A stretch of 64,000 nt of DNA from Ruminococcus sp. (GCA_023667165.1 JAMPAO010000005.1:19-64018); one strand, 5' to 3'; positions 16,558 through 45,288 are shown, counted from the stretch's first letter. Numbers and translations: made by a program. Notes: a model not told the origin generated them from the letters alone.

Positions 16558-16644
16558 AATAAGCGGAAACGGCATTTCGGAAAGTCAAATATGATTTAAA
16601 TGGCTTTGGAATATTTCGTCTTTATCATCGGAGGTTGATTTTTT

Positions 16645-17214: not shown

Positions 17215-17260
17215 CCCTTGCGGCAGGATGTTTATTATATGATTTGGAGTAAAAAAGTCT

Positions 17261-18037: not shown

Positions 18038-18046
18038 GGAGATAAT

Positions 18047-21602: not shown

Positions 21603-21615
21603 GGAGCGTATATAA

Positions 21616-29445: not shown

Positions 29446-29840
29446 ATGAGATAAAAAAGGGCGATACCGTTCTTGCACGGCATATTAAGCCGGAGGATAT
29501 AAAAGAGGGGCTGAGCTTTTTTTCGGCTGACGAGGAATTCATACAGGTAGGGGCGTGGAATTACGGCAAGGGAAAGGATCTGTTGGCTCATATCCATAAT
29601 GAGATACCGAGAACAGCGACAAGAACCTGTGAAACCTTATATGTAATAAGCGGAGCTATCGAGGCAAAAATATACGGCCTTGACCGTGAGCCTGTTGACA
29701 CGTTTACGGTCAAGGCAGGCGAGATACTGATATTGCTGGAATGCGGACACGGGTATAAGGTACTTGAGGACAATACCAAGGTTCTGGAAGTGAAAAACGG
29801 TCCGTATCTTGGCGCTGAAACCGATCGGTACAGAATATAA
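29442..29840 (+). CDS. small cupin-fold protein (possible sugar-nucleotide isomerase/epimerase accessory protein)
   Basis: 132 aa. Cupin motif LAHIHNEIPRTATRTCETLYVISG. ATGA overlap with the fcl stop. Confidence 0.55.
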   Translation: MNEIKKGDTVLARHIKPEDIKEGLSFFSADEEFIQVGAWNYGKGKDLLAHIHNEIPRTATRTCETLYVISGAIEAKIYGLDREPVDTFTVKAGEILILLECGHGYKVLEDNTKVLEVKNGPYLGAETDRYRI

Positions 29841-29854
29841 AGGAGGAAATAACA

Positions 29855-30943
29855 GTGGATTTTATTGCACAGATGGAGCCGTCCTTTGATTTCCATGAAA
29901 GGCAGGCTATGGACGAGTATATGGCAAACGGCGGCTGGCTGATGGAGTTTAAGAAAACCCGTGAGTTTGAAAAAATGATAGCTGATTATACGGGGGCAAA
30001 ATATTGTTCGATCATGCCCAACGGTACTATCAGCCTTTCGGCTGCATTGATAGCCTCCGGCGTCGGAGCGGCAGACGAGGTGATAGTTCCCGATTACACC
30101 ATGGTCGCAACGCCCAATTCGGCGGAATTGATAGGCGCTAAAGCCGTATTTGTCGACATAGAAAGAGATACTCTTTGTATGGACGCAGAGGCTATGAAAA
30201 AAGCGATCACGGCAAAAACCAAGGCTGTTATCGTTGTATCCATAAACGGACGGTATCCAAATAAAATGGATGAAATAGTATCGGTATGCAAGGAAAACGG
30301 GCTTACGCTTATTGAGGACGCCGCGCAATCCCTGGGAAGCTGCCGGAAAGGCAGGCATCTCGGAACAATAGGCGACATAGGCAGCTTTTCATTCTCCGTC
30401 CCGAAAATCATTACTACAGGTCAGGGCGGAGCGCTGGTGACGAATGACGAGGAGCTGTATAACAAAATACTTAAGGTTCGTGACTTCGGCAGAGAAAAAA
30501 GCGGCAGCGATCATTATCTTTCCAAGGGCTGGAATTTCAAATTCACCGATATGCAGGCGGTGATCGGAATTGAACAAATGAAAAAGCTGTCCGAAAGAGT
30601 TCTCCGCAAAAAGGAAATGGGACAATTGTACGATTCGCTTCTGAAAGACATTCCCGGCGTGGAGCTCATTAAAACCAACTATGATGATACAGCTCCTTGG
30701 TTTTTTGATATACTTTGTGAAAAAAGAGAAGGGCTGATGGGATTTTTAAAGGAACATGGAGTAGGTTCACGTCCCTTTTACCCTCCGCTGCACGCAGAGC
30801 CTGCCTACGGATATAATGAATTGTCGTTCCCCGTAACGGAGGAAATATCTTCAAAGGGACTTTGGCTGCCGTCTTCGGTAACGCTGAGCAGCGAGCAGAT
30901 AGAGTATGTATGCAGGTGTATCGGGGAATTTTATTTGAAATAA
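29855..30943 (+). CDS. DegT/DnrJ/EryC1-family PLP aminotransferase (GDP-perosamine-synthase-like by context)
   Basis: 362 aa. EPSFDFHERQAMDEY...NGTISLSAAL..DEVIVPDYTMVAT. GTG start. Confidence 0.75.
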   Translation: MDFIAQMEPSFDFHERQAMDEYMANGGWLMEFKKTREFEKMIADYTGAKYCSIMPNGTISLSAALIASGVGAADEVIVPDYTMVATPNSAELIGAKAVFVDIERDTLCMDAEAMKKAITAKTKAVIVVSINGRYPNKMDEIVSVCKENGLTLIEDAAQSLGSCRKGRHLGTIGDIGSFSFSVPKIITTGQGGALVTNDEELYNKILKVRDFGREKSGSDHYLSKGWNFKFTDMQAVIGIEQMKKLSERVLRKKEMGQLYDSLLKDIPGVELIKTNYDDTAPWFFDILCEKREGLMGFLKEHGVGSRPFYPPLHAEPAYGYNELSFPVTEEISSKGLWLPSSVTLSSEQIEYVCRCIGEFYLK

Positions 30944-30970
30944 TATCATCAGAACCAAAGAGGTAAAAAA

Positions 30971-32326
30971 ATGAAATTGATCTTACTCTCCGGCGGCTCC
31001 GGCAAGCGGCTGTGGCCGCTGTCCAACGATGTCCGTTCAAAGCAGTTTTTAAAAGTCGTACAAAACGAAAAAGGGAAAATTGAGTCCATGGTACAGCGCG
31101 TCTACCGTCAGATGAACGAGGCAAAGCTCAACGCGGCTATCACTATCGCCACAAGCGCTGCACAGGCTGAGTCTATCAAAAGTCAGTTGGGTGACAGGGT
31201 TTCCGTTGTCATTGAACCCGAACGGCGCAACACTTTTCCCGCTATCGTCCTTTCGGCGGCGTTTCTCTATTATGAAAAAAATGTTCCTTCCGATGAAACT
31301 ATAGTGGTTTTGCCGGTGGATCCTTACGTGGACAGCGGATATTTTGCGAAAATTCACGAGCTGGACAGGGCTGTGCAGAACAATGCGGGGGATATTGTTC
31401 TCATGGGCGTTGAGCCTACTTATCCCTCGGAAAAGTACGGCTATATTATTCCCGAAGACCGCGGCGGGGACGTTATGCGGGTAGCGGAGTTCAAGGAAAA
31501 GCCGGACGTAAACACTGCTGAGGGATTTATTTCCCGGGGCGCTCTTTGGAACTGCGGCGTGTTTGCATTCAAGCTGTCTTATCTGATCGAAAATCTTCGG
31601 GAGATCATTTCCTTTGATTCCTTTGGGGATGTGGAGCGGCAGTACGGGAAACTGGAAAAAACCAGCTTCGATTATGCGGTGGTGGAAAAGGCGAAGCGGG
31701 TAGCGGCGGTTCCCTACAGCGGCGAATGGAAAGATCTGGGTACATGGAACACGCTGACGGAGGTCATGAGCCAAAAGCCTATTGGCGATGTGAAATTGTC
31801 GGAGGACTGCGAAAATACTCATGTTATCAATGAGCTGGACGTACCTGTTATAGTAATGGGAGCCAAAAATATGGTCGTGGCAGCGGGACACGACGGCATA
31901 TTGGTTGCGGATAAGGAACAAAGTTCCTATATCAAGCAGTATGTGGAGGACATGGACAGGCGCCCAATGTATGAGGAACGTGGCTACGGGGAGTACAAGG
32001 TGCTGGATCTGGTGATAGGCAGAGATGGTACAAAGTCGCTTACAAAGCGAAAGACCGTAAAGGCAGGCAGTTGTATTGAGTATCAGCGTCACCGAAACCG
32101 CTCGGAAATATGGGCGGTCATCGGCGGCAAATGCATAATTACCGTAAACGACCGCGCCCATGAGGCTTTGGCAGGGGACACCTTTTCCATCGGCGAGGGC
32201 GTTATGCACGGACTCAAAGCCATAACCGACACGGAGATCATTGAGATACAGGTTGGCAAGGAGCTTATTGCCGACGGCACGGAGGTCGGAGAGGACAAGC
32301 ATGCCGAATGGCTTATGGAAAAATGA
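30971..32326 (+). CDS. manC: mannose-1-phosphate guanylyltransferase (nucleotidyltransferase + C-terminal cupin)
   Basis: MKLILLSGGSGKRLWPLSN, EKPD, C-terminal cupin EYQRHRNRSEIWAVIGG; 451 aa. Confidence 0.8.
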   Translation: MKLILLSGGSGKRLWPLSNDVRSKQFLKVVQNEKGKIESMVQRVYRQMNEAKLNAAITIATSAAQAESIKSQLGDRVSVVIEPERRNTFPAIVLSAAFLYYEKNVPSDETIVVLPVDPYVDSGYFAKIHELDRAVQNNAGDIVLMGVEPTYPSEKYGYIIPEDRGGDVMRVAEFKEKPDVNTAEGFISRGALWNCGVFAFKLSYLIENLREIISFDSFGDVERQYGKLEKTSFDYAVVEKAKRVAAVPYSGEWKDLGTWNTLTEVMSQKPIGDVKLSEDCENTHVINELDVPVIVMGAKNMVVAAGHDGILVADKEQSSYIKQYVEDMDRRPMYEERGYGEYKVLDLVIGRDGTKSLTKRKTVKAGSCIEYQRHRNRSEIWAVIGGKCIITVNDRAHEALAGDTFSIGEGVMHGLKAITDTEIIEIQVGKELIADGTEVGEDKHAEWLMEK

Positions 32327-32408: not shown

Positions 32409-32437
32409 TTGACATTATGCGGATTTTATGGTATGAT
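32409..32437 (+). promoter_or_regulatory. sigma-A promoter candidate ahead of the DUF115/Wzx block
   Basis: TTGACA (32409-32414), 17-nt spacer, TGgTATGAT (32432-32437), inside a 270-nt AT-rich gap. Confidence 0.55.
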
Positions 32438-32597: not shown

Positions 32598-33464
32598 ATG
32601 GCTTCTGATACAAAGCTTTCTTTCAAGCTATGGAATATGTGCAGAGATATCTGCGTCAAGCTGGGGTTATGGCAATTCGGGCACAATGTATATACTCTCT
32701 GGGTGCAGTTTACTATGATTAAATTTAACCGTGATATGAACAGACGAAGAAACGGATGGAATGATCCTCGTTATGTGAAATTGAGGCAGTTTGAGAATAT
32801 TCACAAGGGAAAGCGGTGCTTTATTGTTTGCACAGGTCCAAGTCTTACCGTGGAAGATGTTAATAAATTAAAAGAAAACAATGAGATTTGCTTGAGTATG
32901 AATTCTATTGTAAATCTGCTTGATAAAACAGACTGGCGTCCCTCATATTATGTGGTATTGGATCCATGGGTATTTGAGCTTTTTTTAAATAATCCTATTA
33001 TGAATGACCTTAAAGTCAAATTTTTTGGCGATAAAATGTCTAATGTTGCAAATTTATGTGAGAATGACATGATGCTGCCTACCAATTTATTGGAGTTTTT
33101 AAAAATAGGATATCCAAGATCATTTTCCGACAATATATACAATGTAGTGTACGGAGGCGCGTCGGTAACTTATGCATGTATGCAGATTGCTGCATACATG
33201 GGGTTTAGTGAAGTATATCTGCTTGGATGTGATTGTAATTACAGCGGTTCCAAAAAACATTTTGATGATAAAGGATACGAGTATGCAAATGAGAAGATGG
33301 ATGCAGAAGGAAGCGTTGAAGATAATATGATTAAGACTTATCAATCAGCCCAAGCCTACTGCGAAACACACGAGGATTTCCAAATTTATAACGCCACCCG
33401 GGGCGGTATGCTGGAGGTCTTTCCACGCGTCGACTTTGACTCCCTTTTTGATAATAAATCATGA
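32598..33464 (+). CDS. DUF115/MptE-like protein (Maf- and CstII-like); putative ulosonic-acid (sialyl-type) transferase
   Basis: 288 aa. FIVCTGPSL (compare GNGPSL of CstII) and GGASVTYACMQIAAYMGFSEVYLLGCDCNY (compare SGVYMCAVAIALGYKEIYLSGIDFY). Confidence 0.6.
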   Translation: MASDTKLSFKLWNMCRDICVKLGLWQFGHNVYTLWVQFTMIKFNRDMNRRRNGWNDPRYVKLRQFENIHKGKRCFIVCTGPSLTVEDVNKLKENNEICLSMNSIVNLLDKTDWRPSYYVVLDPWVFELFLNNPIMNDLKVKFFGDKMSNVANLCENDMMLPTNLLEFLKIGYPRSFSDNIYNVVYGGASVTYACMQIAAYMGFSEVYLLGCDCNYSGSKKHFDDKGYEYANEKMDAEGSVEDNMIKTYQSAQAYCETHEDFQIYNATRGGMLEVFPRVDFDSLFDNKS

Positions 33465-34906
33465 AGAAGGGGTTGCTTGAAAAATACCGAGGATTGCCCT
33501 TATCCGTAAAGGCAGGATTTTGGTTTACGGTGTGCAGCGCTGTTCAAAACGGAGCAAGTTTTCTTTCTATGCCATTTCTGGTGAGATTGCTTACGACCGA
33601 AGAATACGGTATATACAGTGTTTTCCGCTCTTGGATAAATATTATTTCAATTTTTGCCACGCTTAAGATGTGTACGGAAGTATTCAATAACGCCATGTAT
33701 AAGTATCCTGACCGAAGAGATGAATATACCTCGGCGGCTCAAAGCATAAGCATTACCGGAGTTACAATATGCTTTATCGTGTATTTGGCGTTGAAAGACG
33801 TATGGAACGTCGTTTTCGGACTTCCCGGAAAATATTCTCTTCTGATCTTTATCCAGTTGTTTTTTACGGAAAGCTATGCCGTATGGACGGCTAAGCAGCG
33901 GTATGAATACAGGTACATGAATATGGTGATCTCTACGGTCGCTTTTTCGCTGTTGTATTTTGCAATGCCCATTCTGGCGGGGTATATGTCCGATGAAAAT
34001 ACCCGTCTGTCTGCTGTTATTTATGCAGGCGTTGCAGTTCAGGTCTGCTTCGGGTTCGGTTTTACGGTATTTAACTTTTTTAAAGGGAAATGCTTTTTTA
34101 ACCGTGAGTATTGGAAATTTGCCATAGGCTTTAACCTGCCCTTGATACCTCACTTTCTTTCATCGGTAATTTTGGGAGAATCGGACAGAGTTATGATAAA
34201 AAATATAGTAGGGCCTTCCGAAGCCGGAATATACAGCTTTGTTTATACAATAGCTATTGCTATAAACATTGTTACCGAAGCAATCAGAAATGCGATAGTT
34301 CCTATTGTTTACGACGCCTTGGGAAAGAAAGATTTTAAGGCAGTCAAATCGGCGGTAAATATTCTTCTGATTGCCGTGGGCGGGTTTATATTGATGTTTT
34401 CCGCAGTCGCCCCCGAGTTTATAAAGCTGTTTGCGACAAATGAGTATTACGGCGCAATAAAACTCGTGCCGGTAATATCTTTAAGTTCCTTTTTCGGTTT
34501 TTTGTACACGGTATTTTCAAATGTTGAGTTTTTCTTTGAAAAAAACAAGCTGGTGGCAATTGCTTCCGTTGCGGGGGCGGCAGCCAATATTTTCCTGAAT
34601 GCACTCTTGATACCGATATTCGGCTACTATGCGGCGGGGTATACTACCTTTTTGTGCTATGGGTTATACGCCCTTATCCACTATGCTTTTATGAGGAGAG
34701 TATGCAGAGAGAAGCTGGACGGTATGGAGGTTTATGATGAAAAAACCGTTTTGGTTATTTCGGTGCTGGTCATATTGGCGGCATTCTTTATGCTAATGAT
34801 ATACGATTATTGGCTCATTCGCTACGGGGTGCTGTTGGCGTGTCTGTCAGTGATAGCTGTAAAGCGAAAGAAAATAGCGTATCTTTTGGCAAGTTTAAAA
34901 AAATAA
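33461..34906 (+). CDS. wzx: Wzx-type oligosaccharide flippase (MOP superfamily)
   Basis: 481 aa, about 12-14 hydrophobic segments, typical polysaccharide-biosynthesis-protein layout. ATGA overlap with the upstream gene. Confidence 0.75.
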   Translation: MKKGLLEKYRGLPLSVKAGFWFTVCSAVQNGASFLSMPFLVRLLTTEEYGIYSVFRSWINIISIFATLKMCTEVFNNAMYKYPDRRDEYTSAAQSISITGVTICFIVYLALKDVWNVVFGLPGKYSLLIFIQLFFTESYAVWTAKQRYEYRYMNMVISTVAFSLLYFAMPILAGYMSDENTRLSAVIYAGVAVQVCFGFGFTVFNFFKGKCFFNREYWKFAIGFNLPLIPHFLSSVILGESDRVMIKNIVGPSEAGIYSFVYTIAIAINIVTEAIRNAIVPIVYDALGKKDFKAVKSAVNILLIAVGGFILMFSAVAPEFIKLFATNEYYGAIKLVPVISLSSFFGFLYTVFSNVEFFFEKNKLVAIASVAGAAANIFLNALLIPIFGYYAAGYTTFLCYGLYALIHYAFMRRVCREKLDGMEVYDEKTVLVISVLVILAAFFMLMIYDYWLIRYGVLLACLSVIAVKRKKIAYLLASLKK

Positions 34907-34932
34907 ATGTTTTTGATTTAGGAGATGATTTT

Positions 34933-35634
34933 ATGAAAACAGTTGCGGTCATACCGATCAAAATGAACAATCAGCGTACGCCGGGCAAAAACACCAGACC
35001 ATTAAGCGACGGTACGCCCTTGATCCATTTGATCCAAAAAACGCTGCTTGAATGCACTCAGATAGATGAGGTGTATGTTTATTGCAGCACGGAAGAGATA
35101 AAAAATTATCTTCTTCCGGGTGTGAAATATTTAAAAAGAAGTTCGCAGCTTGACACAGCGGAAACATCCATGAATACCATTTTGAAATGTTTTTCGGAGG
35201 ATGTCGATTCCGATATTTATGTTTTATCTCATGCAACGGCTCCGTTCTTATCGGCAGCAAGCATTGAAAAAGCGGTCAACGCGGTAAAAAGCGGCAAATA
35301 CGATTCTGCCTTTTCCGTGGAGAAGATGTATGATTTTTTTTGGAAAGGCAATGCGCCCTTAAATTATTCACTTGATAATATTCCCAGAACTCAGGACATG
35401 GAACCTTTTATCAAGGAAACCTCGGGTGTGTATGTGTTTACCGGAAATATTATCCGTGAACATAACCGTCGAATAGGAGATTCTCCCTGTATGGTTGAGG
35501 TATCTGAGATAGAGGCTATAGACATAGACACCCCCGATGATTTTATGATCGCAGACGCCGTTTACAGCTATATGCATATCTTACAAAAGGCAAATTGCAC
35601 AACGGGGGGGGGCATTACAAACAATATTTGTTGA
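34933..35634 (+). CDS. acylneuraminate (CMP-ulosonate) cytidylyltransferase family protein
   Basis: MKTVAVIPIKMNNQRTPGKN, RTQD, IDIDTPDDFMIAD; 233 aa. GGAG RBS upstream of ATG 34933. The track start at 34810 was rejected. Confidence 0.75.
   Translation: MKTVAVIPIKMNNQRTPGKNTRPLSDGTPLIHLIQKTLLECTQIDEVYVYCSTEEIKNYLLPGVKYLKRSSQLDTAETSMNTILKCFSEDVDSDIYVLSHATAPFLSAASIEKAVNAVKSGKYDSAFSVEKMYDFFWKGNAPLNYSLDNIPRTQDMEPFIKETSGVYVFTGNIIREHNRRIGDSPCMVEVSEIEAIDIDTPDDFMIADAVYSYMHILQKANCTTGGGITNNIC
35604..35612 (+). repeat. poly-G tract (G9) in the last 10 codons of the cytidylyltransferase gene
   Basis: Direct count gives G at 35604-35612, encoding TGGG. Confidence 0.95.
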
Positions 35635-35686
35635 TAATGCCCAAATTTGTTCGCGGTTCTGCCTCCATTAAAGGAGGTGAAGCGGC

Positions 35687-36418
35687 ATGAAAATTATAGG
35701 CGTTATCCCTGCCCGATACAAGTCATCCCGTTTTCCGGGGAAGCCATTGTCTGATATATGCGGTAAGCCTATGATCTGGTGGGTCTATCAGCAATGCAGG
35801 AAGGTTGAGGAATTCGATGAAATTTATGTGGCGACCGACGATGAGCGGATAAAGTCCGTTTGTGACAAAGAGGGTCTTGGCGTTATCATGACGTCGGAGA
35901 AACACCTTACCGGTACGGACAGAGTTGCCGAGGTATCTCAAAAAACCGACGGCGATCTGTATGTTGTTGTCATGGGCGATGAACCGCTTATTTCTCCCGA
36001 TAATATAAGGGCAATGATAAGCGGGATGTTCGGCGGATATGACGCGGGCATGCTTTGTACAAAATTTAAAAACGGAGTTGATTTGATAAACAACTCCACG
36101 ATTAAGCTGGCAGTCAACGACAGGAATGAGCTTATCTATATGTCAAGGCTTCCGATCCCTTTTCCCAAGGCTGTTTTAGGCTACAGTCACTACAAAAATG
36201 TGGGGGTTTATGCGTTTACCAATAAGGCTCTTGATTTTTTCAGAAGCACTCCCAGGGGTCGGTTGGAAGCAATAGAGGATATGGAAATGCTTCGTCTGCT
36301 TGAAAATCATAAGCTGGTCAAGGTAGTCGAGGTGGAAACCGAATCTATGTCGGTGGACACGCAGAAAGATCTGGAACGGATCAGGGAAAAAGCCGCCGAA
36401 ACAGGATTTCCGTTATAA
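35687..36418 (+). CDS. KdsB-like 3-deoxy-ulosonate cytidylyltransferase
   Basis: MKIIGVIPARYKSSRFPGKPL, TDRVAE, MGDEPL; 243 aa. AAGGAGG RBS. Confidence 0.75.
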   Translation: MKIIGVIPARYKSSRFPGKPLSDICGKPMIWWVYQQCRKVEEFDEIYVATDDERIKSVCDKEGLGVIMTSEKHLTGTDRVAEVSQKTDGDLYVVVMGDEPLISPDNIRAMISGMFGGYDAGMLCTKFKNGVDLINNSTIKLAVNDRNELIYMSRLPIPFPKAVLGYSHYKNVGVYAFTNKALDFFRSTPRGRLEAIEDMEMLRLLENHKLVKVVEVETESMSVDTQKDLERIREKAAETGFPL

Positions 36419-36464
36419 GAATAATTATATGCTCCGTAATGATATTTTTATAACGGTATGACAG

Positions 36465-36499
36465 GTATCGGGAAACGGCGGCTCAAGATTTCCCGATAC
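36465..36499 (+). terminator. perfect 11-bp stem hairpin between kdsB-like and SDR genes, with no U-tract
   Basis: GTATCGGGAAA (36465-36475), 13-nt loop, TTTCCCGATAC (36489-36499). Without a T-run it may be an attenuator or stability element rather than a terminator. Confidence 0.35.
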
Positions 36500-36533
36500 T
36501 GACGATATACAAAAAATATCAGGAGGAAAAAGT

Positions 36534-37460
36534 ATGAATTATTTAGTAACGGGTGCAGCGGGATTTATCGGAGCTGCATTGGCTCAAAGACTGGTAAACG
36601 AGGGTCACAGTGTGGTGACTATCGACAATTTGTCGACGGGCATAATGGAAAATATTCCCAGGGGAGTTGAGTTTATAAAGGGAGATACCTTTTCTCCGGA
36701 GGTGATCGCCAAGCTGGAAAACCGCAAATTTGACGCGATCTATCACATTGCCGGACAAAGCGGAGGAGTTACCTGCTGGAGCGATCCCATTTATGACTTA
36801 AATTCAAATGTGGCTTCCAGCTTGCTGCTGCTTGACTATGCAAAAGAAAACGGAATCAAAAAATTCATATATGCAAGCTCCATGTCCGTGTACGGAGATG
36901 AAAACCCTTGCCCGGTAAGGGAAGACGCCGATATAAAGCCCAAGAGCTTTTATGCTGTGGGTAAAAATGCCAGCGAGCATTATATGAGGATATATTCGGA
37001 GCAATACGGTATAAAGTGCACGGCTTTGAGATTAAACAACACATACGGTCCCGGTCAGAATATGGAAAACCTTATGCAGGGAATGGTCAGCATTTTCCTT
37101 GCGCACGCCTTGAAGAACAAGCATATCACTGTTTTGGGCGATAAGAACAGATTCCGTGACTTTGTGTATATAGACGACACGGTGAATGCTTTTATACTTG
37201 CCGAAAACGGTCAGGAAAAAGACTTGTATAACGTGTATACGGTAGCTACTAACCGTAAAACCACCTGCGAACAGCTTATTGATTTGATGAAAAGGTATCT
37301 GCCCTTTGAAATAACCGTTGAATACAAGGGCAGTACACGGGGCGATCAATTCGGTATTTACTGCTCGTATGACAAAATACACGACGCGCTCGGTTTTACT
37401 CCTCAAGTGGCTTTAGAGGATGGGCTGAAGACAATGATCGAATGGGCGATGTCAAAATAG
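36534..37460 (+). CDS. NAD-dependent sugar-nucleotide epimerase/dehydratase (GalE/WbpP-like SDR)
   Basis: YLVTGAAGFIGAALAQRLV, SSMSVYG, YAVGKNASEHY; 308 aa. Confidence 0.8.
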   Translation: MNYLVTGAAGFIGAALAQRLVNEGHSVVTIDNLSTGIMENIPRGVEFIKGDTFSPEVIAKLENRKFDAIYHIAGQSGGVTCWSDPIYDLNSNVASSLLLLDYAKENGIKKFIYASSMSVYGDENPCPVREDADIKPKSFYAVGKNASEHYMRIYSEQYGIKCTALRLNNTYGPGQNMENLMQGMVSIFLAHALKNKHITVLGDKNRFRDFVYIDDTVNAFILAENGQEKDLYNVYTVATNRKTTCEQLIDLMKRYLPFEITVEYKGSTRGDQFGIYCSYDKIHDALGFTPQVALEDGLKTMIEWAMSK

Positions 37461-37523
37461 TATTCATTTTTCAGATATTTACGGCGGCATATGCAGATCA
37501 ATAATTTTGAAAGGAGCTGCAAA

Positions 37524-39107
37524 GTGAGTATACAAATTCTTGACTGTACTCTTCGTGACGGGGGATATGTGAACGATTGGGAATTCGGCGAGAATAATAT
37601 CAGGCGGATCATAAAAAATCTGTCGGAAGCGTCTATTGAAGCGATAGAATGCGGATTTTTAAGCCAAACAAAGAAATCCCGAAAAAATCAAAGCATATTT
37701 TCCGAGGTTTCAGAGGCGGAAGATTATTGCTTGGGAATAGATTCGGACAGTCTTGCTCTTATGGTAAACTGCGGTGAATATAAACCCGATGATCTCCCGC
37801 AGTATCAAGGAGGAAAAATCGGGATAATCCGGATAGCATTCCATAAGCATCAGCGGAATGAGGCGCAGGAGCTTTGCCTTGCGCTGAAAAATAACGGCTT
37901 TAGGGTTTTCTTTCAGCCTATGTATACATTGGGTTACAAGGACAGCGAGCTGCTGGAGCTGATAGAATGGGCAAACGCGAACTCTCCGGAGGCTTTTTAT
38001 ATAGTTGACAGCTTCGGGACAATGCGGAACAGGGATGTTTTAAGGTTTTTCTATCTCGTAAACAATAATCTGAATCCGGATATAAAAATCGGATTTCATT
38101 CCCATAACAATCTGCAGTTATCTTTCTCCAATGCACAGGAGCTTATTAAGGTCCATTTAAAACGTGATATAATCATCGATACCTCTGTCCTGGGCATGGG
38201 ACGGGGAGCAGGAAATCTTTGCACGGAGCTGATGACCCAGTACATCAACGAAAATATTGAAAAAAAATATGATCTGATACCGATTCTCGAAACCATGGAC
38301 GAGAATATCATGCCCATTTATTCCAATCACCCATGGGGTTACTCCGCGCCCTACTACATTGCAGCGGTCAATGACTGTCACCCCAATTACGCTTCCTACC
38401 TTATCGACCGCCAGACCCTTTGCATTAAAGATATAAACGTGATCATCAAGCAGATACCGGATGAGAAAAAGCACCTTTTTGACAGGGCGCTTATAAGCGG
38501 TTTGTATCTGAAGTTTCAGTCCCACAGCATTGACGACAGCGGGGCGATAGAGGATATAGCAAGGCTTTGCGGCGGCAAAAGGGTGCTTATTTTGGCTCCC
38601 GGAAAAAGTCTGCTCACTCACAGAAGCGCCATTGACAGGTTCATCTCCGAAAATGCGCCGGTGGTGTTCGCTATAAATCATATACCGAAGTTTTATGACT
38701 GCGACAGGATATTTATCAGCAATCTCAAGCGTTTCAAAAGCTTTGACGACGCTGTTTCACAGGTTAAGGACAAGCTCATATGCACATCGAATATTGCCGC
38801 TGAAAGCAGCATTTGCCGTGTAAATTATTCCAATTACCTCAATGATAACGAGGTGATCTACGATAATTCGGGGCTTATGCTGATAAATGTCTTGAAAAAA
38901 GCAGGGATAAACAGTCTGTTTCTTGCCGGATATGACGGATTTAAATATGCCGGAGCGAAGAACTATTTTGACGAGAACCTTGCCGATAATATCAACACGC
39001 AGCGGCAAAGCGCGATTAACGCCGCAATTGTTGAATATTTTACCGAAATGCGAAAGGTTATGAAGATAGATTTTATAACGCCGACGATATATGACAGCCA
39101 AGGATAA
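37524..39107 (+). CDS. fusion protein: N-terminal DRE-TIM (HMGL-like, pyruvate-utilising) aldolase domain + C-terminal DUF115/CstII-like transferase domain
   Basis: N-terminus IQILDCTLRDGGY, HSHNN, GRGAGN (DRE-TIM metallolyase motifs). C-terminus KRVLILAPGKSL and NSGLMLINVLKKAGINSLFLAGYDGF. AAGGAG RBS 7 nt upstream of GTG 37524; ATG 37491 is an alternative start. Confidence 0.65.
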   Translation: MSIQILDCTLRDGGYVNDWEFGENNIRRIIKNLSEASIEAIECGFLSQTKKSRKNQSIFSEVSEAEDYCLGIDSDSLALMVNCGEYKPDDLPQYQGGKIGIIRIAFHKHQRNEAQELCLALKNNGFRVFFQPMYTLGYKDSELLELIEWANANSPEAFYIVDSFGTMRNRDVLRFFYLVNNNLNPDIKIGFHSHNNLQLSFSNAQELIKVHLKRDIIIDTSVLGMGRGAGNLCTELMTQYINENIEKKYDLIPILETMDENIMPIYSNHPWGYSAPYYIAAVNDCHPNYASYLIDRQTLCIKDINVIIKQIPDEKKHLFDRALISGLYLKFQSHSIDDSGAIEDIARLCGGKRVLILAPGKSLLTHRSAIDRFISENAPVVFAINHIPKFYDCDRIFISNLKRFKSFDDAVSQVKDKLICTSNIAAESSICRVNYSNYLNDNEVIYDNSGLMLINVLKKAGINSLFLAGYDGFKYAGAKNYFDENLADNINTQRQSAINAAIVEYFTEMRKVMKIDFITPTIYDSQG

Positions 39108-39190
39108 AGGGCAAGCATAGTATTGCCGATTTTGTGCGGGAAAGTCTTTATCGGCTGCCGCTTGAAATTTTTTAATTTAAGAAAGGTCGT

Positions 39191-40045
39191 ATGAATATGG
39201 AAAAGGTAATATGTTTCGGAGCAGGCGGTACAGCCGAGCATCTCTACGGCAAAATAACGGAAAAATACGATGTCATTGCTTTTGCGGATAATCAAGCTTC
39301 AAAGCATGGGCAAACTCTTATGGGAAAGGAGATAATCCCGCCGGACAGCATAAACGACTACCCCTATGACTATATTGTACTCACTACAATGTGCGGGGAT
39401 TCAATATTCGGTCAGCTTGCCGAAATACGGGGGGGGGGTATAGACAGGACGAAAATAATCTCGGATTTTGTTTCATACCCTGTTGAAAGCAGGATAGAAT
39501 GGCTGCGTTCTTTGTCGGACCTTCAGGAAAATATTGATAAAAACATCAATGTGGCTGAAGCGGGAGTATTCCAAGGTGATTTTGCAAAGCATATTAACAG
39601 CCTTTATCCCGAGAGGACGCTGCATTTATTCGATACCTTCGAGGGATTTTCTAAAAACGACGTAAATCGGGAAAACGGGTTATCCGACGCTTATTCCGGT
39701 AAATTTGCAAGTACAAGCGAGGATCTTGTTATGAAAAAAATGAGCCATCCGGAAAAAGTACATATCCATAAAGGTTTTTTTCCGCAGACTGCCGAGGGGA
39801 TAACCTCGCAGTTTTGCTTTGTCAATCTTGATATGGATCTGTATCAGCCGACGCTGGAGGGTCTGCGTTTATTCGCTCCCAAAATGGTCAGAAACGGAGT
39901 TATCTTAATTCACGACTATCTTTGGGGACCCTATGAAAAGAGCGTAAAAAAAGCCGTTCATGAGTTTATGGACGAAACGGAATTCAAAAATCTTCGTTTA
40001 ATGCCTATCGGAGACGGGGTAAGCATTGCTGTGGTAGGCTTTTGA
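39191..40045 (+). CDS. TylF/macrocin-O-methyltransferase-family SAM-dependent methyltransferase
   Basis: VAEAGVFQGDF, LFDTFEGF, NLDMDLYQPT, IHDY; 284 aa. Confidence 0.75.
   Translation: MNMEKVICFGAGGTAEHLYGKITEKYDVIAFADNQASKHGQTLMGKEIIPPDSINDYPYDYIVLTTMCGDSIFGQLAEIRGGGIDRTKIISDFVSYPVESRIEWLRSLSDLQENIDKNINVAEAGVFQGDFAKHINSLYPERTLHLFDTFEGFSKNDVNRENGLSDAYSGKFASTSEDLVMKKMSHPEKVHIHKGFFPQTAEGITSQFCFVNLDMDLYQPTLEGLRLFAPKMVRNGVILIHDYLWGPYEKSVKKAVHEFMDETEFKNLRLMPIGDGVSIAVVGF
39429..39438 (+). repeat. poly-G tract (G10) inside the methyltransferase CDS (codons ~80-83)
   Basis: Direct count gives G at 39429-39438, encoding RGGG. Confidence 0.95.
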
Positions 40046-40166
40046 TGAGCAAATACAAATAGCCAAACAGCCGATTTTTCATACAAATGAACGCGGCTGT
40101 TTCATGGCGGTATAGACTGCTGTGCTGCTGTTTTCTGTGTATCGCCATGACAAGAGGGGGAAAAGC

Positions 40167-40808
40167 ATGAATAAATATAAGCTTGTGATCTTCGATTTTG
40201 ACGGCACCGTCGCCGATACATCCGAGGGTATATTCAACAGCATACGTTACGCGCAGAAAATGATGCAGCTTCCGGAGATAAGTGCGGAGCAAATGCGTTC
40301 TCATGTGGGACCGCCCATGGAGGAATCCTATAACAGGAATTTCGGACTTCGGGGTGAGAAGCTGAAAAGAGCGGTGGCATACCACAAGGAATATGCGGTA
40401 AAGCAAGGCTTCAGAGAGCTGCGGATTTATGACGGGATCTTAGATCTGCTGGACAAGCTGCGCAGCGAAGGGTATCTTACCGCTGTAGCGACATTAAAAG
40501 CTCAAGGGACTATGGACAAAATAGCTGAGTGCTTCGGACTTAAGGAACGGTTCGACTGTATTGCGGGGGTAACGGAGCCTGTTACCAAGGGGGAGCTTAT
40601 ATTAAAATGCATGAAAGAGCTGGGGTGTACGGCTAAGGAAACCGTTCTGGTGGGTGACAGCGAGTATGACGCCTTGGGGGCAAGGGACGCAGAGGTTCGG
40701 TTCGTGGCGGTAACGTACGGATTTGGATTTAAAGAGGGAGAGGCTATCGAAGCAGTCGGTGTGTGCGGGAGGGCGGAGGAAATTTGGGAACGGATTCAAG
40801 AGGATTGA
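40167..40808 (+). CDS. HAD-superfamily phosphatase (phosphoglycolate-phosphatase-like)
   Basis: YKLVIFDFDGTVADT (DxDGT), VGDSEYD; 213 aa from ATG 40167 (GAGGGGGA RBS). Confidence 0.8.
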   Translation: MNKYKLVIFDFDGTVADTSEGIFNSIRYAQKMMQLPEISAEQMRSHVGPPMEESYNRNFGLRGEKLKRAVAYHKEYAVKQGFRELRIYDGILDLLDKLRSEGYLTAVATLKAQGTMDKIAECFGLKERFDCIAGVTEPVTKGELILKCMKELGCTAKETVLVGDSEYDALGARDAEVRFVAVTYGFGFKEGEAIEAVGVCGRAEEIWERIQED

Positions 40809-40945
40809 ATGCAAATCAAATTATATTAATCAGCTTCTGGGCATATTCGGATAACCGTATTGACAAGACGCATTTTATCATCTTATCGTAATACATGAGA
40901 ACGGCGACAAAAGCAAACCGCCGAGCTGCAGAAAGAGGTCGAATT

Positions 40946-41665
40946 ATGGATAAAAGGGTTCTGATAATAATCCCCGCATACAACGAGTCGGATAATATCG
41001 AAAGCGTAGTGGATAATATTATAAATAATTATCCCCAATACGATTATGTGATAATCAACGACTGTTCCACAGACAATACCGAGGAAATAATCCGCAGTCG
41101 GGGTTACAATTATATTTCTCTGCCTGCGAATTTGGGCATCGGCGGAGGAGTGCAGTGCGGGTATTTATACGCTGTACAGAACGGCTATGATATTGCCGTT
41201 CAGATAGACGGCGACGGTCAGCACGATCCCGCATATATCGAAAAGCTTATAGAACCCATTATCGACGGCAAGGCTGATATGACAATAGGCTCTCGGTTTA
41301 TAGAAAAAGAGGGATTTCAGACTTCTGCAATGCGCAGGCTCGGGATAAATATTATCCGTATTGTTATAAAAATATGCTGCGGAGTTGCCGTTACGGATAC
41401 CACCAGCGGCTTCAGAGCCACAAACAGCGAGGCAACCAGATATTTCTCATTAAATTATGCTCAGGACTATCCCGAGCCGGAGGCTATAGTTGCGGCTGCG
41501 CTGAACGGCTTTAGTATAGCGGACGTTCCCGTGGTCATGAAAGAGAGGGCGGGAGGCGTTTCCTCAATTAACGCCAAACGTTCGGTCTATTATATGATAA
41601 AGGTATCCCTTGCTCTGATAATATGCAGGATAGGGATCAAAAGAACAAGGAGGAAAAAGCCGTGA
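40946..41665 (+). CDS. GT2 glycosyltransferase (polyprenyl-phosphate sugar synthase-like, GtrB/DPM1 type)
   Basis: VLIIIPAYNESDNIESVV, INDCSTDNT, QIDGDGQHDP, and a C-terminal hydrophobic helix; 239 aa from ATG 40946. Confidence 0.75.
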   Translation: MDKRVLIIIPAYNESDNIESVVDNIINNYPQYDYVIINDCSTDNTEEIIRSRGYNYISLPANLGIGGGVQCGYLYAVQNGYDIAVQIDGDGQHDPAYIEKLIEPIIDGKADMTIGSRFIEKEGFQTSAMRRLGINIIRIVIKICCGVAVTDTTSGFRATNSEATRYFSLNYAQDYPEPEAIVAAALNGFSIADVPVVMKERAGGVSSINAKRSVYYMIKVSLALIICRIGIKRTRRKKP

Positions 41666-42024
41666 ATCCCGTTTTGCAGATTTTTCTTATATTATGCGTA
41701 ATTGCCTTTTTGGCGATAATCATACATTATCTTGCCAAAAGCAAGCTCAACCTTAAATATTCCCTTACCTGGCTGGCGGCGGGATTCGGTATGCTGATAC
41801 TTGCATTTTTTCCGAAGCTGGTGGAGATGATAGGGAATCTTGTGGGAATAGCAGCTCCGGTGAATACGGTTTTTCTGTTTGCGGGAATGTTTATGCTGCT
41901 TATAATTTTTACTCTTACCATGATAGTTTCCCATATGAACAAGCGGATCTACAGGCTTACCCAATTGCAGGCGCTGCTGGAGAAAAGGGTGAGGGAGCTG
42001 GAAACGGAAAAGGATAAACAATAA
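41662..42024 (+). CDS. small membrane protein, DUF2304-like
   Basis: 120 aa from GTG 41662 (AAGGAGG RBS; GTGA overlap with the GT2 stop). About 3-4 TM segments plus a charged C-terminal helix. I recall the GT2+DUF2304 pairing as common. Confidence 0.55.
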   Translation: MNPVLQIFLILCVIAFLAIIIHYLAKSKLNLKYSLTWLAAGFGMLILAFFPKLVEMIGNLVGIAAPVNTVFLFAGMFMLLIIFTLTMIVSHMNKRIYRLTQLQALLEKRVRELETEKDKQ

Positions 42025-42043
42025 AATTTGAGGTGAAAATTTT

Positions 42044-43195
42044 ATGGGAACGAATAGTGCGGCAGCTTCTTCGGGCAGAAATTATCAGATAGATGCGTTG
42101 AAATTGGTGTGTGCTGTTTTGGTTGTAATAAGTCATTGCTATTCGTTAGTAGATCCGCAGAATACTGATCTTATAGAAAAGATGCTCAATTTTGGGTGGG
42201 TCAGCGTTCATGTGTTTTTTGTTATATCCGGTTTTCTTATGCTCAAAAGCATTGATAAAAAATATCGAAATAATGTCTGCACCAGTCCCGGTCACAGCGC
42301 ATTTTCGTATGTTTCGGCAAAATACAAGGCAATTTCGCTGCCGTTTATTGTATCGGTAGTAATAGCAATGTCAACTTATTTAATACTTGCCATATATATA
42401 TATATATATGGTTCACATTTGACATCCAATGTTATAGAAGAGATCGGTTACGATCCCTTGGATTACATAATAAGAGCTATTCCCGAGCTGTTAGCCCTTG
42501 GCGATACAAGACTCAATTTTCCGTTTAATCCGCCCGGCTGGTACATCTCGGCTATGCTGATTGCCATGCTTCCAATGTGTTATATGCTTATTCGGAACAG
42601 GGATTTTTATATATATGTTTTCTCTCCTATCGCAGCGATACTGCTGTTTGCCTTTCTATTCCATATTCGCCAAGATATGACATATGAGATAAGAATAGAG
42701 TGGGGAGAAGGAGCGAAATTTTTTATTAATCTTTTCCGAGCTGTCTGCGGTATATGCTTCGGAGCGGTTGCATGGCTGATATACGATCGGCTTTGTAAGC
42801 TCCCGGATAAAAAACGATACAGATTGATTGTCACTGCTTTGGAAATAATTTTTAATGTATTGTTTTTCTATACGTGGCTTTTCCGTTACAGCACTCCCGC
42901 AACATTATTCTGTGCGATGCTGCTGATCCCTGCATTGATAGCGGCAGCATTCAGCGGTAAAAGCTTAGTGTCGGGATTATTCAAACATAATATCTTCAGG
43001 CACTGCGGCTCGCTGTCATTAACAATATATCTTAATCACTGGATCCCCGTAATGATCTCGTTTGTTATCGTAAAGCAAAATCCGGTTTTGGGGATAGCTT
43101 TAGTATTTATTCTTACTGCTGTATTCTCCCTTATCAATATGCTGTCGGTAAGGGTAATAAAATTTCTGTGGAGAAAGCTCGTGACCGTTGACTGA
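42044..43195 (+). CDS. acyltransferase family 3 membrane protein (putative glycan O-acetyltransferase)
   Basis: NYQIDALKLVCAVLVVISH, VHVFFVISGF; 383 aa, about 10 TM. Confidence 0.8.
   Translation: MGTNSAAASSGRNYQIDALKLVCAVLVVISHCYSLVDPQNTDLIEKMLNFGWVSVHVFFVISGFLMLKSIDKKYRNNVCTSPGHSAFSYVSAKYKAISLPFIVSVVIAMSTYLILAIYIYIYGSHLTSNVIEEIGYDPLDYIIRAIPELLALGDTRLNFPFNPPGWYISAMLIAMLPMCYMLIRNRDFYIYVFSPIAAILLFAFLFHIRQDMTYEIRIEWGEGAKFFINLFRAVCGICFGAVAWLIYDRLCKLPDKKRYRLIVTALEIIFNVLFFYTWLFRYSTPATLFCAMLLIPALIAAAFSGKSLVSGLFKHNIFRHCGSLSLTIYLNHWIPVMISFVIVKQNPVLGIALVFILTAVFSLINMLSVRVIKFLWRKLVTVD
42392..42409 (+). repeat. (AT)9 dinucleotide repeat inside the acyltransferase CDS
   Basis: atatatatatatatatat at 42392-42409, encoding IYIYIY. 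Confidence 0.95.
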
Positions 43196-43231
43196 TACTG
43201 AATCTGATGTCAAAAAATTCCGCACCGCCCC

Positions 43232-43260
43232 TTGACCTTTCGGGAATAAAATGTTATTAT
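43232..43260 (+). promoter_or_regulatory. sigma-A promoter candidate upstream of the asnB-like gene
   Basis: TTGACC (43232-43237), 17-nt spacer, TGtTATTAT (43255-43260); ~115-nt leader. Confidence 0.5.
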
Positions 43261-43375
43261 ATATGTATGCCGTTCCGATATGCATACCGGAGGGCGGAGT
43301 ACAGTATAATTATTATGATACTGCTGTTCTGCGGGCATACCGCCGGGCAAAAAGGGTTTACGGAGATGATTTTTT

Positions 43376-45217
43376 ATGTGCGGCTTTGTTGGCTTTACAA
43401 ATAAAACGGATAATTCGAACAAGGTTCTGGGTCGGATGATGGATAAGATCGTTCACAGAGGCCCAGATTCACAGGGACGGTATATTGACGGGCAGATAGC
43501 CATGGGTTTTCGCAGACTGAGCATTATCGACATCACCGACAGCGGCGATCAGCCTATATTCAACGAGGATAGATCCATGGTTCTGATGTTCAACGGCGAG
43601 ATATACAATTACCGTGATATCAGAAAGGAGCTTATTGACAAAGGTCACAGCTTTACCACCAACACCGATTCCGAGGTGCTGCTCCACGGCTATGAGGAAT
43701 TCGGGGAAAAGCTCCTTGACAGGCTGCGCGGAATGTTCGCTTTTGTTATATGGAACAAAAAAAACGGCGAGCTGTTCGGCGCTCGGGATTTTTTCGGCAT
43801 TAAGCCGTTTTATTATGCGGATATGGACGGTACGTTCCTATTCGGTTCGGAAATAAAGGCGTTTACCGTTCACCCCGCTTTCAAAAAGGAGCTTAATACG
43901 GCGGCGCTGGAAAATTATCTGACATTTCAGTATTCCCCGACCGACGAAACGTTTTTCAAGAATGTTTTTAAGCTCCCTCCCGCCCATTACTTCAAGCTGA
44001 GGGATGGGAAAATGGAGATAACAAGATACTGGGACGTTCATTTCAGCGAGGATAATTCCCCCGATATGGAGGAGTGGATAAACCGCATTGACAGTACCTT
44101 CAGGGACTCCGTGCAGGCTCACAAGATCGCGGACGTGGAGGTGGGCAGCTTCCTTTCAAGCGGAGTTGATTCAAGCTATGCCGCTGCGGCAGCCAACGTG
44201 GATAAAACCTTTACCGTGGGCTTCGGCGAGGACGAAAGATACAACGAGATAGGCTGGGCAAAGGAATTTTCCCAGTATATCGGAAAGGAAAACATCAGTA
44301 AGGTAATTACCCCCGAGGAATACTGGGACAGTATTTCAAAAATACAGTATCACATGGACGAACCTCTTGCGGATCCGTCGTGCATTGCGCTGTACTTTGT
44401 ATGCAAAAAGGCTTCGGAATACGTGAAGGTCGTGCTTTCCGGAGAGGGCGCGGACGAGATATTCGGAGGATACAACGTTTACAAGGAACCTCTCGGCTCT
44501 CATGCCTACAAATCGCTGCCCAAATTTATCCGCAGGGGGATAGGCGCGGCTGCCGAACGTCTTCCGCAGAAAAGAGGAGTTAATTTCCTTGTGAGAAACG
44601 GCAAGGATCTGGAAGAGCGTTTTATAGGAAACGCTTATATCTTTTCTCCCAAGGACAGGAAAAAGCTGCTGAGGATATCCACATCCGCACCCGATCCCAC
44701 GGAGATAACAGCTCCCTTTTACGACAAGGTAAGGGATAAGGACAGCATTACAAAAATGCAGTATCTCGATCTTCATCTTTGGATGACGGGGGACATACTG
44801 CTGAAAGCGGACAAAATGTCAATGGCGAATTCTCTCGAGCTGCGGGTGCCTTTTCTGGACAGGGAGGTAATGGATCTTGCGCGGCAGATACCGTGGAAAT
44901 ACCGCGTAAGCACGGAAAATACCAAGCTTGCCATGAGAGGAGCGGCTTTAAGATCCGCTCCGAAGAAAACCGCAGACAAGAAAAAGCTGGGATTTCCCGT
45001 GCCTATCAGGGTATGGCTGAAAGAGGACAAATACTACGGCATTGTTAAGGATATGTTTACCTCAAAGGCGTCGGAAAAATTTTTCAATGTTCCGCTGCTT
45101 GTAAAGCTCCTTGACGATCACAGGGTGGGTAAATATGACAACAGCAGGAAAATATGGACGGTATTTATCTTTCTGAAATGGTACGAGGTTTATTTTTCCG
45201 ATCTGAACGAGGCATGA
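43376..45217 (+). CDS. asnB: asparagine synthase (glutamine-hydrolysing) family amidotransferase
   Basis: N-terminal MCGFVGF (Ntn Cys2), SGVDSS PP-loop; 613 aa. Confidence 0.88.
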   Translation: MCGFVGFTNKTDNSNKVLGRMMDKIVHRGPDSQGRYIDGQIAMGFRRLSIIDITDSGDQPIFNEDRSMVLMFNGEIYNYRDIRKELIDKGHSFTTNTDSEVLLHGYEEFGEKLLDRLRGMFAFVIWNKKNGELFGARDFFGIKPFYYADMDGTFLFGSEIKAFTVHPAFKKELNTAALENYLTFQYSPTDETFFKNVFKLPPAHYFKLRDGKMEITRYWDVHFSEDNSPDMEEWINRIDSTFRDSVQAHKIADVEVGSFLSSGVDSSYAAAAANVDKTFTVGFGEDERYNEIGWAKEFSQYIGKENISKVITPEEYWDSISKIQYHMDEPLADPSCIALYFVCKKASEYVKVVLSGEGADEIFGGYNVYKEPLGSHAYKSLPKFIRRGIGAAAERLPQKRGVNFLVRNGKDLEERFIGNAYIFSPKDRKKLLRISTSAPDPTEITAPFYDKVRDKDSITKMQYLDLHLWMTGDILLKADKMSMANSLELRVPFLDREVMDLARQIPWKYRVSTENTKLAMRGAALRSAPKKTADKKKLGFPVPIRVWLKEDKYYGIVKDMFTSKASEKFFNVPLLVKLLDDHRVGKYDNSRKIWTVFIFLKWYEVYFSDLNEA

Positions 45218-45250: not shown

Positions 45251-45288
45251 AAGAGCCGTGCGGAGCAAACAAGCTCCGCACGGCTCTT
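45251..45288. terminator. bidirectional intrinsic terminator between convergent asnB and queF
   Basis: Perfect 16-bp stem AAGAGCCGTGCGGAGC (45251-45266), loop AAACAA, GCTCCGCACGGCTCTT (45273-45288). The ends are A/T-rich on both sides. Confidence 0.8.

Follow-up and report, generated by a model that had tools for sequence, protein, structure and literature searches.

This report concerns the genes at positions 32598-45217 of a 64,000-nucleotide stretch of DNA from an NCBI metagenome-assembled genome labelled Ruminococcus sp. (GCA_023667165.1 JAMPAO010000005.1:19-64018, one strand, hereafter the window). With somewhat more confidence than doubt, we regard these genes as the side-chain part of a rhamnan-type wall locus, the core cassette of which would make a cytidine monophosphate (CMP)-activated 3-deoxy-2-ulosonic acid without a phosphoenolpyruvate (PEP)-dependent synthase. 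In the first step of the proposed pathway, the DmpG-like metal-dependent aldolase domain of a two-domain protein would join pyruvate to an aldose, most likely an aldose phosphate from central metabolism. Subsequently, a HAD phosphatase would strip the phosphate and thereby pull the reversible aldol reaction forward, and a PF02348-type cytidylyltransferase, of which the window encodes one NeuA-like and one KdsB-like representative, would attach CMP to the free acid. Finally, a stand-alone DUF115 protein resembling Maf and CstII would transfer the residue and a Wzx flippase would flip the unit, while an SDR, a TylF-type methyltransferase, an acyltransferase and an AsnB-like amidotransferase may provide locus-specific decoration of the residue or of its neighbours.

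We infer the reaction, its substrate and product and the order of the steps from direct observations of domain identity, conserved catalytic residues, gene linkage, gene fusions and the absence of canonical synthases from the window and, bar one NeuB-like match, from related loci. An aldolase route had already been put forward in an earlier sequence-only reading of the window; gene linkage and catalytic residues now speak for it, while its reaction and product keep the standing of predictions. The genes listed in that reading all lie where it had placed them, with Pfam scores above the curated cut-offs. The block from the stand-alone DUF115 gene to the phosphatase gene comprises the following features.

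32598-33464, plus strand: stand-alone DUF115/MptE-like protein (PF01973 68.2 bits, E 1e-18, cut-off 34.6)
33461-34906, plus strand: Wzx-type flippase (PF01943 E 5e-17; MatE E 3e-7)
34933-35634, plus strand: CT1, a NeuA/PseF-like PF02348 cytidylyltransferase (PF02348 54.5 bits)
35687-36418, plus strand: CT2, a KdsB/KpsU-like PF02348 cytidylyltransferase (PF02348 148.6 bits)
36534-37460, plus strand: GalE-like SDR epimerase/dehydratase, accessory (PF01370 E 8e-58)
37491-39107, plus strand: two-domain aldolase-DUF115-like protein of 538 amino acids (PF00682 71 bits, cut-off 29)
37527-38468, plus strand: N-terminal DRE-TIM (DmpG-like) domain of the aldolase, amino acids 13-326 (PF00682, 3dxi, Foldseek)
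38523-39104, plus strand: C-terminal DUF115/MptE-like Rossmann-type domain of the aldolase, about 195 amino acids (remote, by hhalign)
39191-40045, plus strand: TylF-type O-methyltransferase, accessory (PF05711 E 6e-10)
40122-40808, plus strand: HAD-IA phosphatase, PGP/PpaX-like (PF13419 E 5e-35)

The aldolase is encoded by an open reading frame (ORF) at 37491-39107, the start of which public gene calls place at 37524, and it is the only candidate for carbon-carbon bond formation in the window, as the sequence-only reading had claimed. Its membership of the DRE-TIM metallolyases is borne out by the PF00682 score, a TIM-barrel fold and the presence of the metal ligands and of the arginine of the RD motif. 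In a profile search of the PDB, residues 13-326 matched 3dxi at E 2e-34 and DmpG-type aldolases at E 1e-13 to 1e-15. The structure comparison that the earlier reading had advised was run on the aldolase and gave the same fold: the AlphaFold2 (AF2) model (pLDDT 84) retrieved 3dxi at 1.8e-16 and 1nvm at 2e-13 in Foldseek, and the top matches were all DRE-TIM enzymes with E values of 1e-16 to 1e-8. The RDG and HxH motifs align with those of DmpG-type aldolases. Residues R22, D23, H203 and H205, which correspond to the Asp/His/His metal ligands and the pyruvate-binding arginine, are invariant in 41 homologues, as are Y284, Y288 and Y289. Hence, the metal- and pyruvate-binding residues, on which the earlier reading had made its hypothesis depend, are retained.

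Gene linkage was surveyed in 81 loci, i.e. the window and one locus from each of 80 further species, among which are members of the Clostridia, Bacilli and Bacteroidales, Treponema, Akkermansia, the Gastranaerophilales and one alphaproteobacterium. Both the aldolase domain and the C-terminal domain were matched in 81 of the 81 loci, the gene being cut by contig ends in a few. A survey of co-occurrence with PF02348 genes, as suggested earlier, revealed a cytidylyltransferase on the same strand and within 3.2 kb of the aldolase in 76 of the 81 loci. The two genes overlap in several of them, e.g. in L006, and two proteins, P0036 and P0110, are outright aldolase-CT1 fusions, one in each domain order; their cytidylyltransferase parts are clearly of the CT1 type, that of P0110 (L005) at about 50% identity. 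In L006 and L093, the cassette is reduced to a three-gene operon of cytidylyltransferase, aldolase and HAD phosphatase standing among unrelated genes.

The two enzymes next to the aldolase in the window differ in their affinities. The closest solved relatives of CT1 are of the NeuA type (9t4z, E 5e-15; 1qwj, E 6e-12), and CT1 clears the PF02348 cut-off of 22.6 while reaching 50 of the 205.7 bits set for PseF. The best solved relative of CT2 is KpsU of E. coli (1gq9, E 5e-48). Moreover, CT2 exceeds the cut-offs of the NCBIfam KdsB subfamilies (NF009905, 267.5 vs 255; NF003952, 246 vs 193) and falls below those of the equivalogs, just so for TIGR00466 kdsB (146 vs 155.2) and by a wider gap for NF003948 (155.6 vs 281). 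With regard to the 81 loci, 32 carry CT1 only, 39 carry CT2 only and 5 carry both. Between closely related aldolases, one type is exchanged for the other, which argues for alternative activators of the same kind of product and not for two sequential steps. The earlier suggestion of sequential activation thus gives way to interchangeable partners of one aldolase product, and the KdsB-like gene, previously seen as a peculiarity in a Gram-positive locus, turns out to be a recurrent feature of this cassette. The use of CT1 and CT2 as markers of two aldolase subfamilies was likewise discarded, since the types are intermixed among close aldolase relatives.

The phosphatase and the transferases are also recurrent companions. 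In 36 of the 81 loci, the aldolase is followed downstream by a homologue of the HAD protein at 40122-40808 (33-60% identity), the gene of which often overlaps the aldolase stop codon, in line with the partnership that had been proposed for the two; recurrent downstream genes of this kind fit an aldose-phosphate substrate. The HAD protein, which is a candidate ulosonate-phosphate phosphatase by its sequence, scores 28 bits against the HAD-SF-IIIA cut-off of 44.6 and is not of the KdsC type. An IMPase-like phosphatase, recognised by its DPIDGT motif only, takes the HAD position in 3 of the 81 loci, and other HAD-like proteins occupy it in further loci. In addition, sialyltransferase-like or DUF115 proteins are encoded within 8 kb of the aldolase in 58 of the 81 loci, which agrees with the earlier view of DUF115-type transferases as companions of the pathway. 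The group is made up of polysialyltransferase-like proteins of PF07388, present in 17 loci, together with an HP-motif family, DUF115 and GT52; LCP ligases are found in several related loci.

Several points weigh against the proposed pathway, which is a prediction from gene linkage and sequence. The first is that a canonical synthase may be encoded outside the window, although the absence of such enzymes from the window itself speaks for the pathway. Pfam scans of 54 window ORFs, which represent essentially all non-nested ORFs of at least 120 amino acids, contained no match to NeuB (PF03102), KdsA/DAHP synthase (PF00793) or NeuC (PF02350), and a six-frame tblastn search of the whole 64-kb window with E. 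coli NeuB, NeuC, KdsA and KpsF gave nothing at E <= 1e-4. The statement of the sequence-only reading that NeuB, KdsA and NeuC are missing thus holds within the window, and so does its statement on PseB/PseC: the sole aminotransferase near the block, the DegT protein at 29855-30943, belongs to a GDP-mannose context. Across the related loci, in which about 20 kb per locus (about 10 kb on each side) was covered, KdsA and NeuC were found in 0 of 81 and a NeuB-like match in 1 of 81 (L083, 4.7 kb upstream). SIS genes near some related loci were considered as arabinose-5-phosphate isomerases and set aside, as their size of about 190 amino acids looks more like GmhA.

Because the absence was established for the 64-kb window, a NeuB or KdsA elsewhere in the genome is possible. 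In that event, which we deem improbable, the acid would be supplied by a distant canonical NeuB, PseI, LegI or KdsA, and the aldolase-DUF115 protein would serve in the remodelling or cleavage of side chains, in the supply or scavenging of an aldehyde, or in the salvage of ulosonate from labile CMP-sugar. The NeuB-like gene of L083 and the reversibility of pyruvate aldolases fit such a role. So do genes for a PfkB protein resembling KDG/KDGal kinases (NCBIfam E 1e-67), which directly adjoin the aldolase in six loci (L037, L040, L052, L058, L081 and L084) and would suit a kinase-plus-aldolase pair for salvage or catabolism. On the contrary, 80 of the 81 loci are devoid of NeuB, KdsA and NeuC within about 10 kb, genes that normally cluster with their cytidylyltransferase, and the minimal loci hold no other sugar-forming enzyme. 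Moreover, both the three-gene operons and the aldolase-cytidylyltransferase fusions speak for steps that follow one another in a single pathway.

The same PfkB genes pose a second difficulty for the aldolase route. The HAD gene is absent from all six of these loci, and a KDG-kinase-like gene in the place of the phosphatase is unexplained by a linear scheme; by their similarity, these partners point to 2-keto-3-deoxy-aldonate chemistry. Furthermore, 23 of the 81 loci, 7 of them truncated, lack any phosphatase or kinase within 8 kb of the aldolase. A third difficulty lies in the aldolase itself, which carries an invariant tyrosine (Y26, in 41 homologues) at the position of DmpG His21, a catalytic residue in DmpG/BphI. 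For TIGR03217 (4-hydroxy-2-oxovalerate aldolase) it reaches 87.7 of the 286 bits required, and for NF006049 91.8 of 229; with scores so far below the equivalog, the reaction that it catalyses may be something other than a plain aldol addition of pyruvate. Finally, two loci without PF02348 (L064 and L070, 2 of 5 such loci) encode a TagD-like cytidylyltransferase of 147 amino acids, recognised by the HxGH motif only, immediately upstream of the aldolase in L064 and one gene away in L070. An enzyme of this type would suit a phosphorylated substrate and a cytidine diphosphate (CDP)-linked product.

These deviations lend some weight to a different product, namely a small acid of the 4-hydroxy-2-oxo type or a hydroxy acid in phosphorylated form, which would be activated as CMP-X or CDP-X and destined for a teichoic-acid-like polymer or a non-sugar substituent. 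The closest characterised enzymes make 4-hydroxy-2-oxovalerate, the TagD-like proteins stand in place of PF02348, the kinase and phosphatase partners vary, and ABC exporters as well as large HAD-domain proteins without assigned function recur. In addition, the PF02348-type enzymes FrbH and PhpF activate phosphonates in other pathways. We nevertheless find such a product hard to favour: NeuA- and KdsB-type PF02348 enzymes use the anomeric hydroxyl group of 2-keto-3-deoxy sugar acids, CT2 exceeds a KdsB subfamily cut-off, the companion transferases are sialyltransferase-like (PF07388, GT52, DUF115) and not TagF-like, and no PEP mutase occurs among the window ORFs scanned with Pfam. A phosphonate pathway of the FrbC/FrbH kind, a lead taken from a paper naming both an HMGL-like enzyme and a cytidylyltransferase, was rejected for the latter reason and since the aldolase is nearer to DmpG than to Claisen-type synthases.

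The fourth difficulty for the ulosonate pathway is the obligatorily fused C-terminal domain of the aldolase protein, the part of which in the scheme is conjectural and may be that of a transferase or kinase. This domain has no Pfam match even at E 10, and neither the PDB profile search nor Foldseek returned anything significant; its AF2 model has a pLDDT of 82, and the Foldseek match of best probability is SteA (9hmz, probability 0.98, E 0.02). Profile-profile comparison with hhalign connected it to the stand-alone DUF115 family (probability 92.9, E 3.6e-7, 125 columns), while six control families remained at E > 0.03. The signal was clear only from family against family and weak against a single DUF115 sequence (E 0.045). 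Hence, the aldolase-DUF115 fusion of the earlier reading is supported as remote homology, to which Pfam alone is blind. In a search of 1.8 billion representative proteins, the domain occupied residues of about 320-535 in matches of about 530 amino acids and the C-terminal end of shorter ones. It is probably a divergent, Rossmann-type homologue of DUF115/MptE that binds nucleotides, and would probably bind a cytidine nucleotide or a CMP-sugar. Its motifs resemble the nucleotide-binding core of CstII, a resemblance that serves as a lead only. Our preferred guess is that the domain exerts feedback control on the first committed step, much as C-terminal regulatory domains do in the DRE-TIM enzymes isopropylmalate synthase (IPMS) and homocitrate synthase.

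A different function for this domain would leave the proposed pathway intact. As a glycosyltransferase, kinase or pyrophosphokinase, it would make the protein a bifunctional synthase-transferase and the three-gene operons complete glycosylation systems. Its homology to stand-alone DUF115 proteins, themselves Maf-like, would accord with this, as would operons without another transferase nearby (L006, L093) and MptE, the namesake of the family, which according to the Pfam description is a pyrophosphokinase. The prospect seems slim to us, given that the loci differ widely in glycan context and possess transferases of their own, while the domain retains 28-67% identity among them; a transferase with a specific acceptor would not usually be so conserved. 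Moreover, judged from the sequences, the catalytic residues Arg129 and His188 of CstII have no conserved counterpart in it.

With respect to the proposed transfer step, the stand-alone DUF115 protein at 32598-33464 is a candidate CMP-ulosonate transferase of the Maf/PseD/CstII kind. It shows weak NCBIfam matches to PseD (2.7e-7) and WaaZ (1.4e-4) and a weak match to the Maf structure 5mu5 (E 0.016), and its homologues adjoin the cytidylyltransferase-aldolase pair in 15 of the 81 loci. Comparison of the DUF115 family with a CstII sequence gave an hhalign E value of 5e-7 and is likewise taken as a lead only. Upstream of the cytidylyltransferase-aldolase pair, a recurrent pair of genes without a Pfam family was noted in, e.g., L012, L019, L039, L043, L060 and L073; it encodes a protein of about 700 amino acids with an N-terminal HAD-IA motif and one of about 520 amino acids, in which D/E-D/E-G and HP motifs resemble those of sialyltransferases. 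In some loci an ABC exporter lies near this pair, which may constitute a polymerase system.

The SDR and TylF proteins, which had been counted among the genes of the pathway, are indeed present, yet they behave as occasional accessories and do not belong to the core. The SDR at 36534-37460, found in a minority of related loci, reaches no NCBIfam equivalog; a homologue with 65% identity adjoins CT1, aldolase and HAD in the Bacteroidales locus L050, and a TylF homologue occurs in L014. In L004, a contig from another sample with 97-98% identity, the genes for TylF (11669-12522) and Acyl_transf_3 (14514-15667) are each split in two ORFs, TylF by a frameshift, while both are intact in the window. 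The splits may reflect phase variation or decay of these decoration genes, or mistakes in the assembly.

The remainder of the block and its surroundings contain the following features.

32409-32437, plus strand: promoter-like site, TTGACA-17-TATGAT, 11/12 matches with an extended -10 TG (consensus match only)
40895-41665, plus strand: GT2, polyprenyl-phosphate sugar synthase-like, AglJ/PpgS-like (PF00535 E 3e-25)
41623-42024, plus strand: DUF2304 small membrane protein (PF10066 E 2e-25)
42044-43195, plus strand: Acyl_transf_3 membrane O-acyltransferase (PF01757 E 8.5e-25)
43376-45217, plus strand: AsnB-like glutamine amidotransferase (PF00733 E 2e-85; GATase_7 E 2e-43)
45251-45288, plus strand: terminator-like hairpin with a 16-bp stem and 11 G-C pairs (consensus scan only)
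14485-18802: rmlD/B/C and ABC-2 exporter, context of the rhamnan locus
18814-21602: RgpF/TagF-like fusion and IspD-like cytidylyltransferase, context of the rhamnan locus
27485-32326: genes for a GDP-mannose-derived amino sugar, upstream of the block

The promoter-like site is situated in the 272-nucleotide gap 5' of the DUF115 gene and, together with the hairpin at 45251-45288, possibly marks the start and end of one transcription unit comprising the genes at 32598-45217. The GT2 protein matches AglJ (8e-27) and PpgS (1e-24) in NCBIfam, reaching the cut-off of neither, and the AsnB-like protein, encoded by the final gene ahead of the hairpin, could act in the amidation of a sugar carboxylate.

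According to the Pfam scans of the window, the block lies at the distal end of a locus for a cell-wall polysaccharide of the rhamnan type. Within this locus, the genes at 18814-22662 encode an RgpF/TagF-like fusion (PF05045 and PF04464, 690 amino acids), followed by an IspD/TarI-like cytidylyltransferase and an SDR, which suggests that the rhamnan is decorated with a polyol phosphate (ribitol or glycerol). Directly 5' of the block, a gene set at 27485-32326 for GDP-mannose 4,6-dehydratase (GMD, 27485), an SDR, an unannotated ORF of 143 amino acids, the DegT aminotransferase and ManC (30971) corresponds to a pathway for a perosamine-like GDP-4-amino-4,6-dideoxyhexose. Further upstream, 7878-13223 encodes an unusual multi-domain glycan assembly enzyme of 1,781 amino acids with radical-SAM, GT2, GT4 and GT1 domains; radical-SAM proteins were also seen in a glycan cluster upstream of the CT1-aldolase fusion of L005. 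Positions 78-1490 encode the C-terminal portion of a restriction-modification enzyme of the MmeI type, with methyltransferase, target-recognition and C-terminal domains, where the Pfam match starts at position 97 of the 259 positions of the methyltransferase model.

Beyond the window, homologues of the aldolase amount to more than 7,900 matches, and 563 stretches of species-representative genomes from several phyla carry confirmed relatives. A tentative generalisation, to which we give slightly less than even credence, is that they constitute a large unrecognised family of ulosonic-acid synthases, in which a class II (metal-dependent) pyruvate aldolase of the DRE-TIM kind, invariably joined to a nucleotide-binding domain that resembles DUF115, would replace NeuB/KdsA and feed CMP-activation and sialyltransferase-like polymerases in hundreds of species from the gut and the environment (Bacillota, Bacteroidota, Spirochaetota, Verrucomicrobiota, Melainabacteria and Pseudomonadota). 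Targeted full-text literature searching found no description of the cassette or of the family. In a plasmid collection, tblastn retrieved only distant homologues of the N-terminal aldolase domain alone, in unrelated contexts. For instance, a Desulfobaculum plasmid (NZ_CP090010.1; L097, 5837-10005) encodes a stand-alone homologue of this domain with 36% identity beside RfbH and a split transketolase, and pathways for other deoxy sugars or branched sugars may employ members of the wider aldolase family.

If the proposal is true, it would reveal a new class of surface glycans that NeuB-based surveys miss; these would resemble sialic acid or Kdo polymers and might have a small keto-deoxy acid of C6-C8 as their building block. 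Surveys of microbial sialic-acid-like sugars use NeuB-type synthases as a marker, and such glycans would accordingly be under-counted, especially in gut Clostridia and Bacteroidales, in which acids at the cell surface influence recognition by the immune system, attachment of phages and binding of lectins. The proposal would also explain KdsB-like genes in Gram-positives that make no lipopolysaccharide, provide a function for the structural-genomics protein BVU_2661 (3dxi) and offer a PEP-independent biocatalyst for keto-deoxy sugar acids. It is directly testable with three or four recombinant proteins, and culturable carriers are available in Gottfriedia acidiceleris, Proteocatella sphenisci, Anaeromicropila herbilytica and Bacteroides vulgatus.

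Among known systems, DmpG/BphI shares with the aldolase the fold, the Asp/His/His ligands, the pyruvate-binding arginine and a helical domain after the barrel. It differs in that the aldolase has Tyr for His21, a fused DUF115-like domain, no DmpF partner and a glycan instead of an aromatic-catabolism context. Neither in the window nor in related loci does a DmpF-like gene adjoin the aldolase; the sole Aldedh match of the window lies at 59299, at a distance of about 20 kb. A catabolic DmpG reading was dismissed on account of the missing partner, the low equivalog score and the glycan-biosynthesis context, and the protein is judged from its sequence not to be a DmpG orthologue. The closest solved relative, 3dxi (N-terminal domain of BVU_2661 from Bacteroides vulgatus, structural genomics), has the LRDGGY motif in common with the aldolase at an identity of about 27% in the structural alignment, and its function is unassigned. 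As the title of the entry speaks of an N-terminal domain, the parent protein extends beyond the crystallised part.

The stand-alone DUF115 protein compares with the flagellin nonulosonate transferases Maf/PseD/PseE, and with CstII of family GT42, through its match to PF01973 and its weak matches to PseD and to the Maf structure. In contrast to those systems, it stands in a Wzx-dependent wall polysaccharide context and not in a flagellin context, and the copy fused to the aldolase is much more divergent.

The teichulosonic acid of Streptomyces coelicolor is a Kdn polymer. Its cluster, SCO4873-4882, provides a precedent for an ulosonic acid in a Gram-positive wall polymer (PMC13011467). The capsule of E. 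coli K3, which combines a rhamnan backbone with a labile hexulosonic acid as side branch, shows that small hexulosonic acids occur on rhamnans; its gene cluster is unassigned, and its sugar is 4-deoxy and thus not a simple pyruvate aldol product.

The proposed route resembles the Kdo pathway (KdsD, KdsA, KdsC, KdsB/KpsU) in the condensation of a C3 unit with an aldose phosphate, dephosphorylation by a HAD enzyme and CMP-activation by PF02348. On the other hand, KdsA with its PEP-dependent DAHP-synthase fold and any match to arabinose-5-phosphate isomerase/KpsF are missing from the window, the phosphatase is a PGP-like HAD-IA protein whereas KdsC is HAD-IIIA, and the condensing enzyme would be a pyruvate DRE-TIM metal aldolase. 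Membership of the classical Kdo pathway was rejected on these grounds. With the NeuC/NeuB/NeuA and PseB-I pathways the cassette shares the NeuA/PseF-like CT1 and sialyltransferase-like transferases, represented here by DUF115/Maf-like proteins, and related loci share with nonulosonate systems the PF07388, GT52 and HP-motif family transferases and the LCP ligases; yet the window is devoid of a NeuB-type synthase, a hydrolysing 2-epimerase and a PseB/PseC set. Taken together, gene linkage substantially supports the reading, in biochemical terms a proposal, of the cassette as a variant of the CMP-ulosonate pathway, with a wide taxonomic reach, in which the synthase would be replaced by a non-homologous enzyme.

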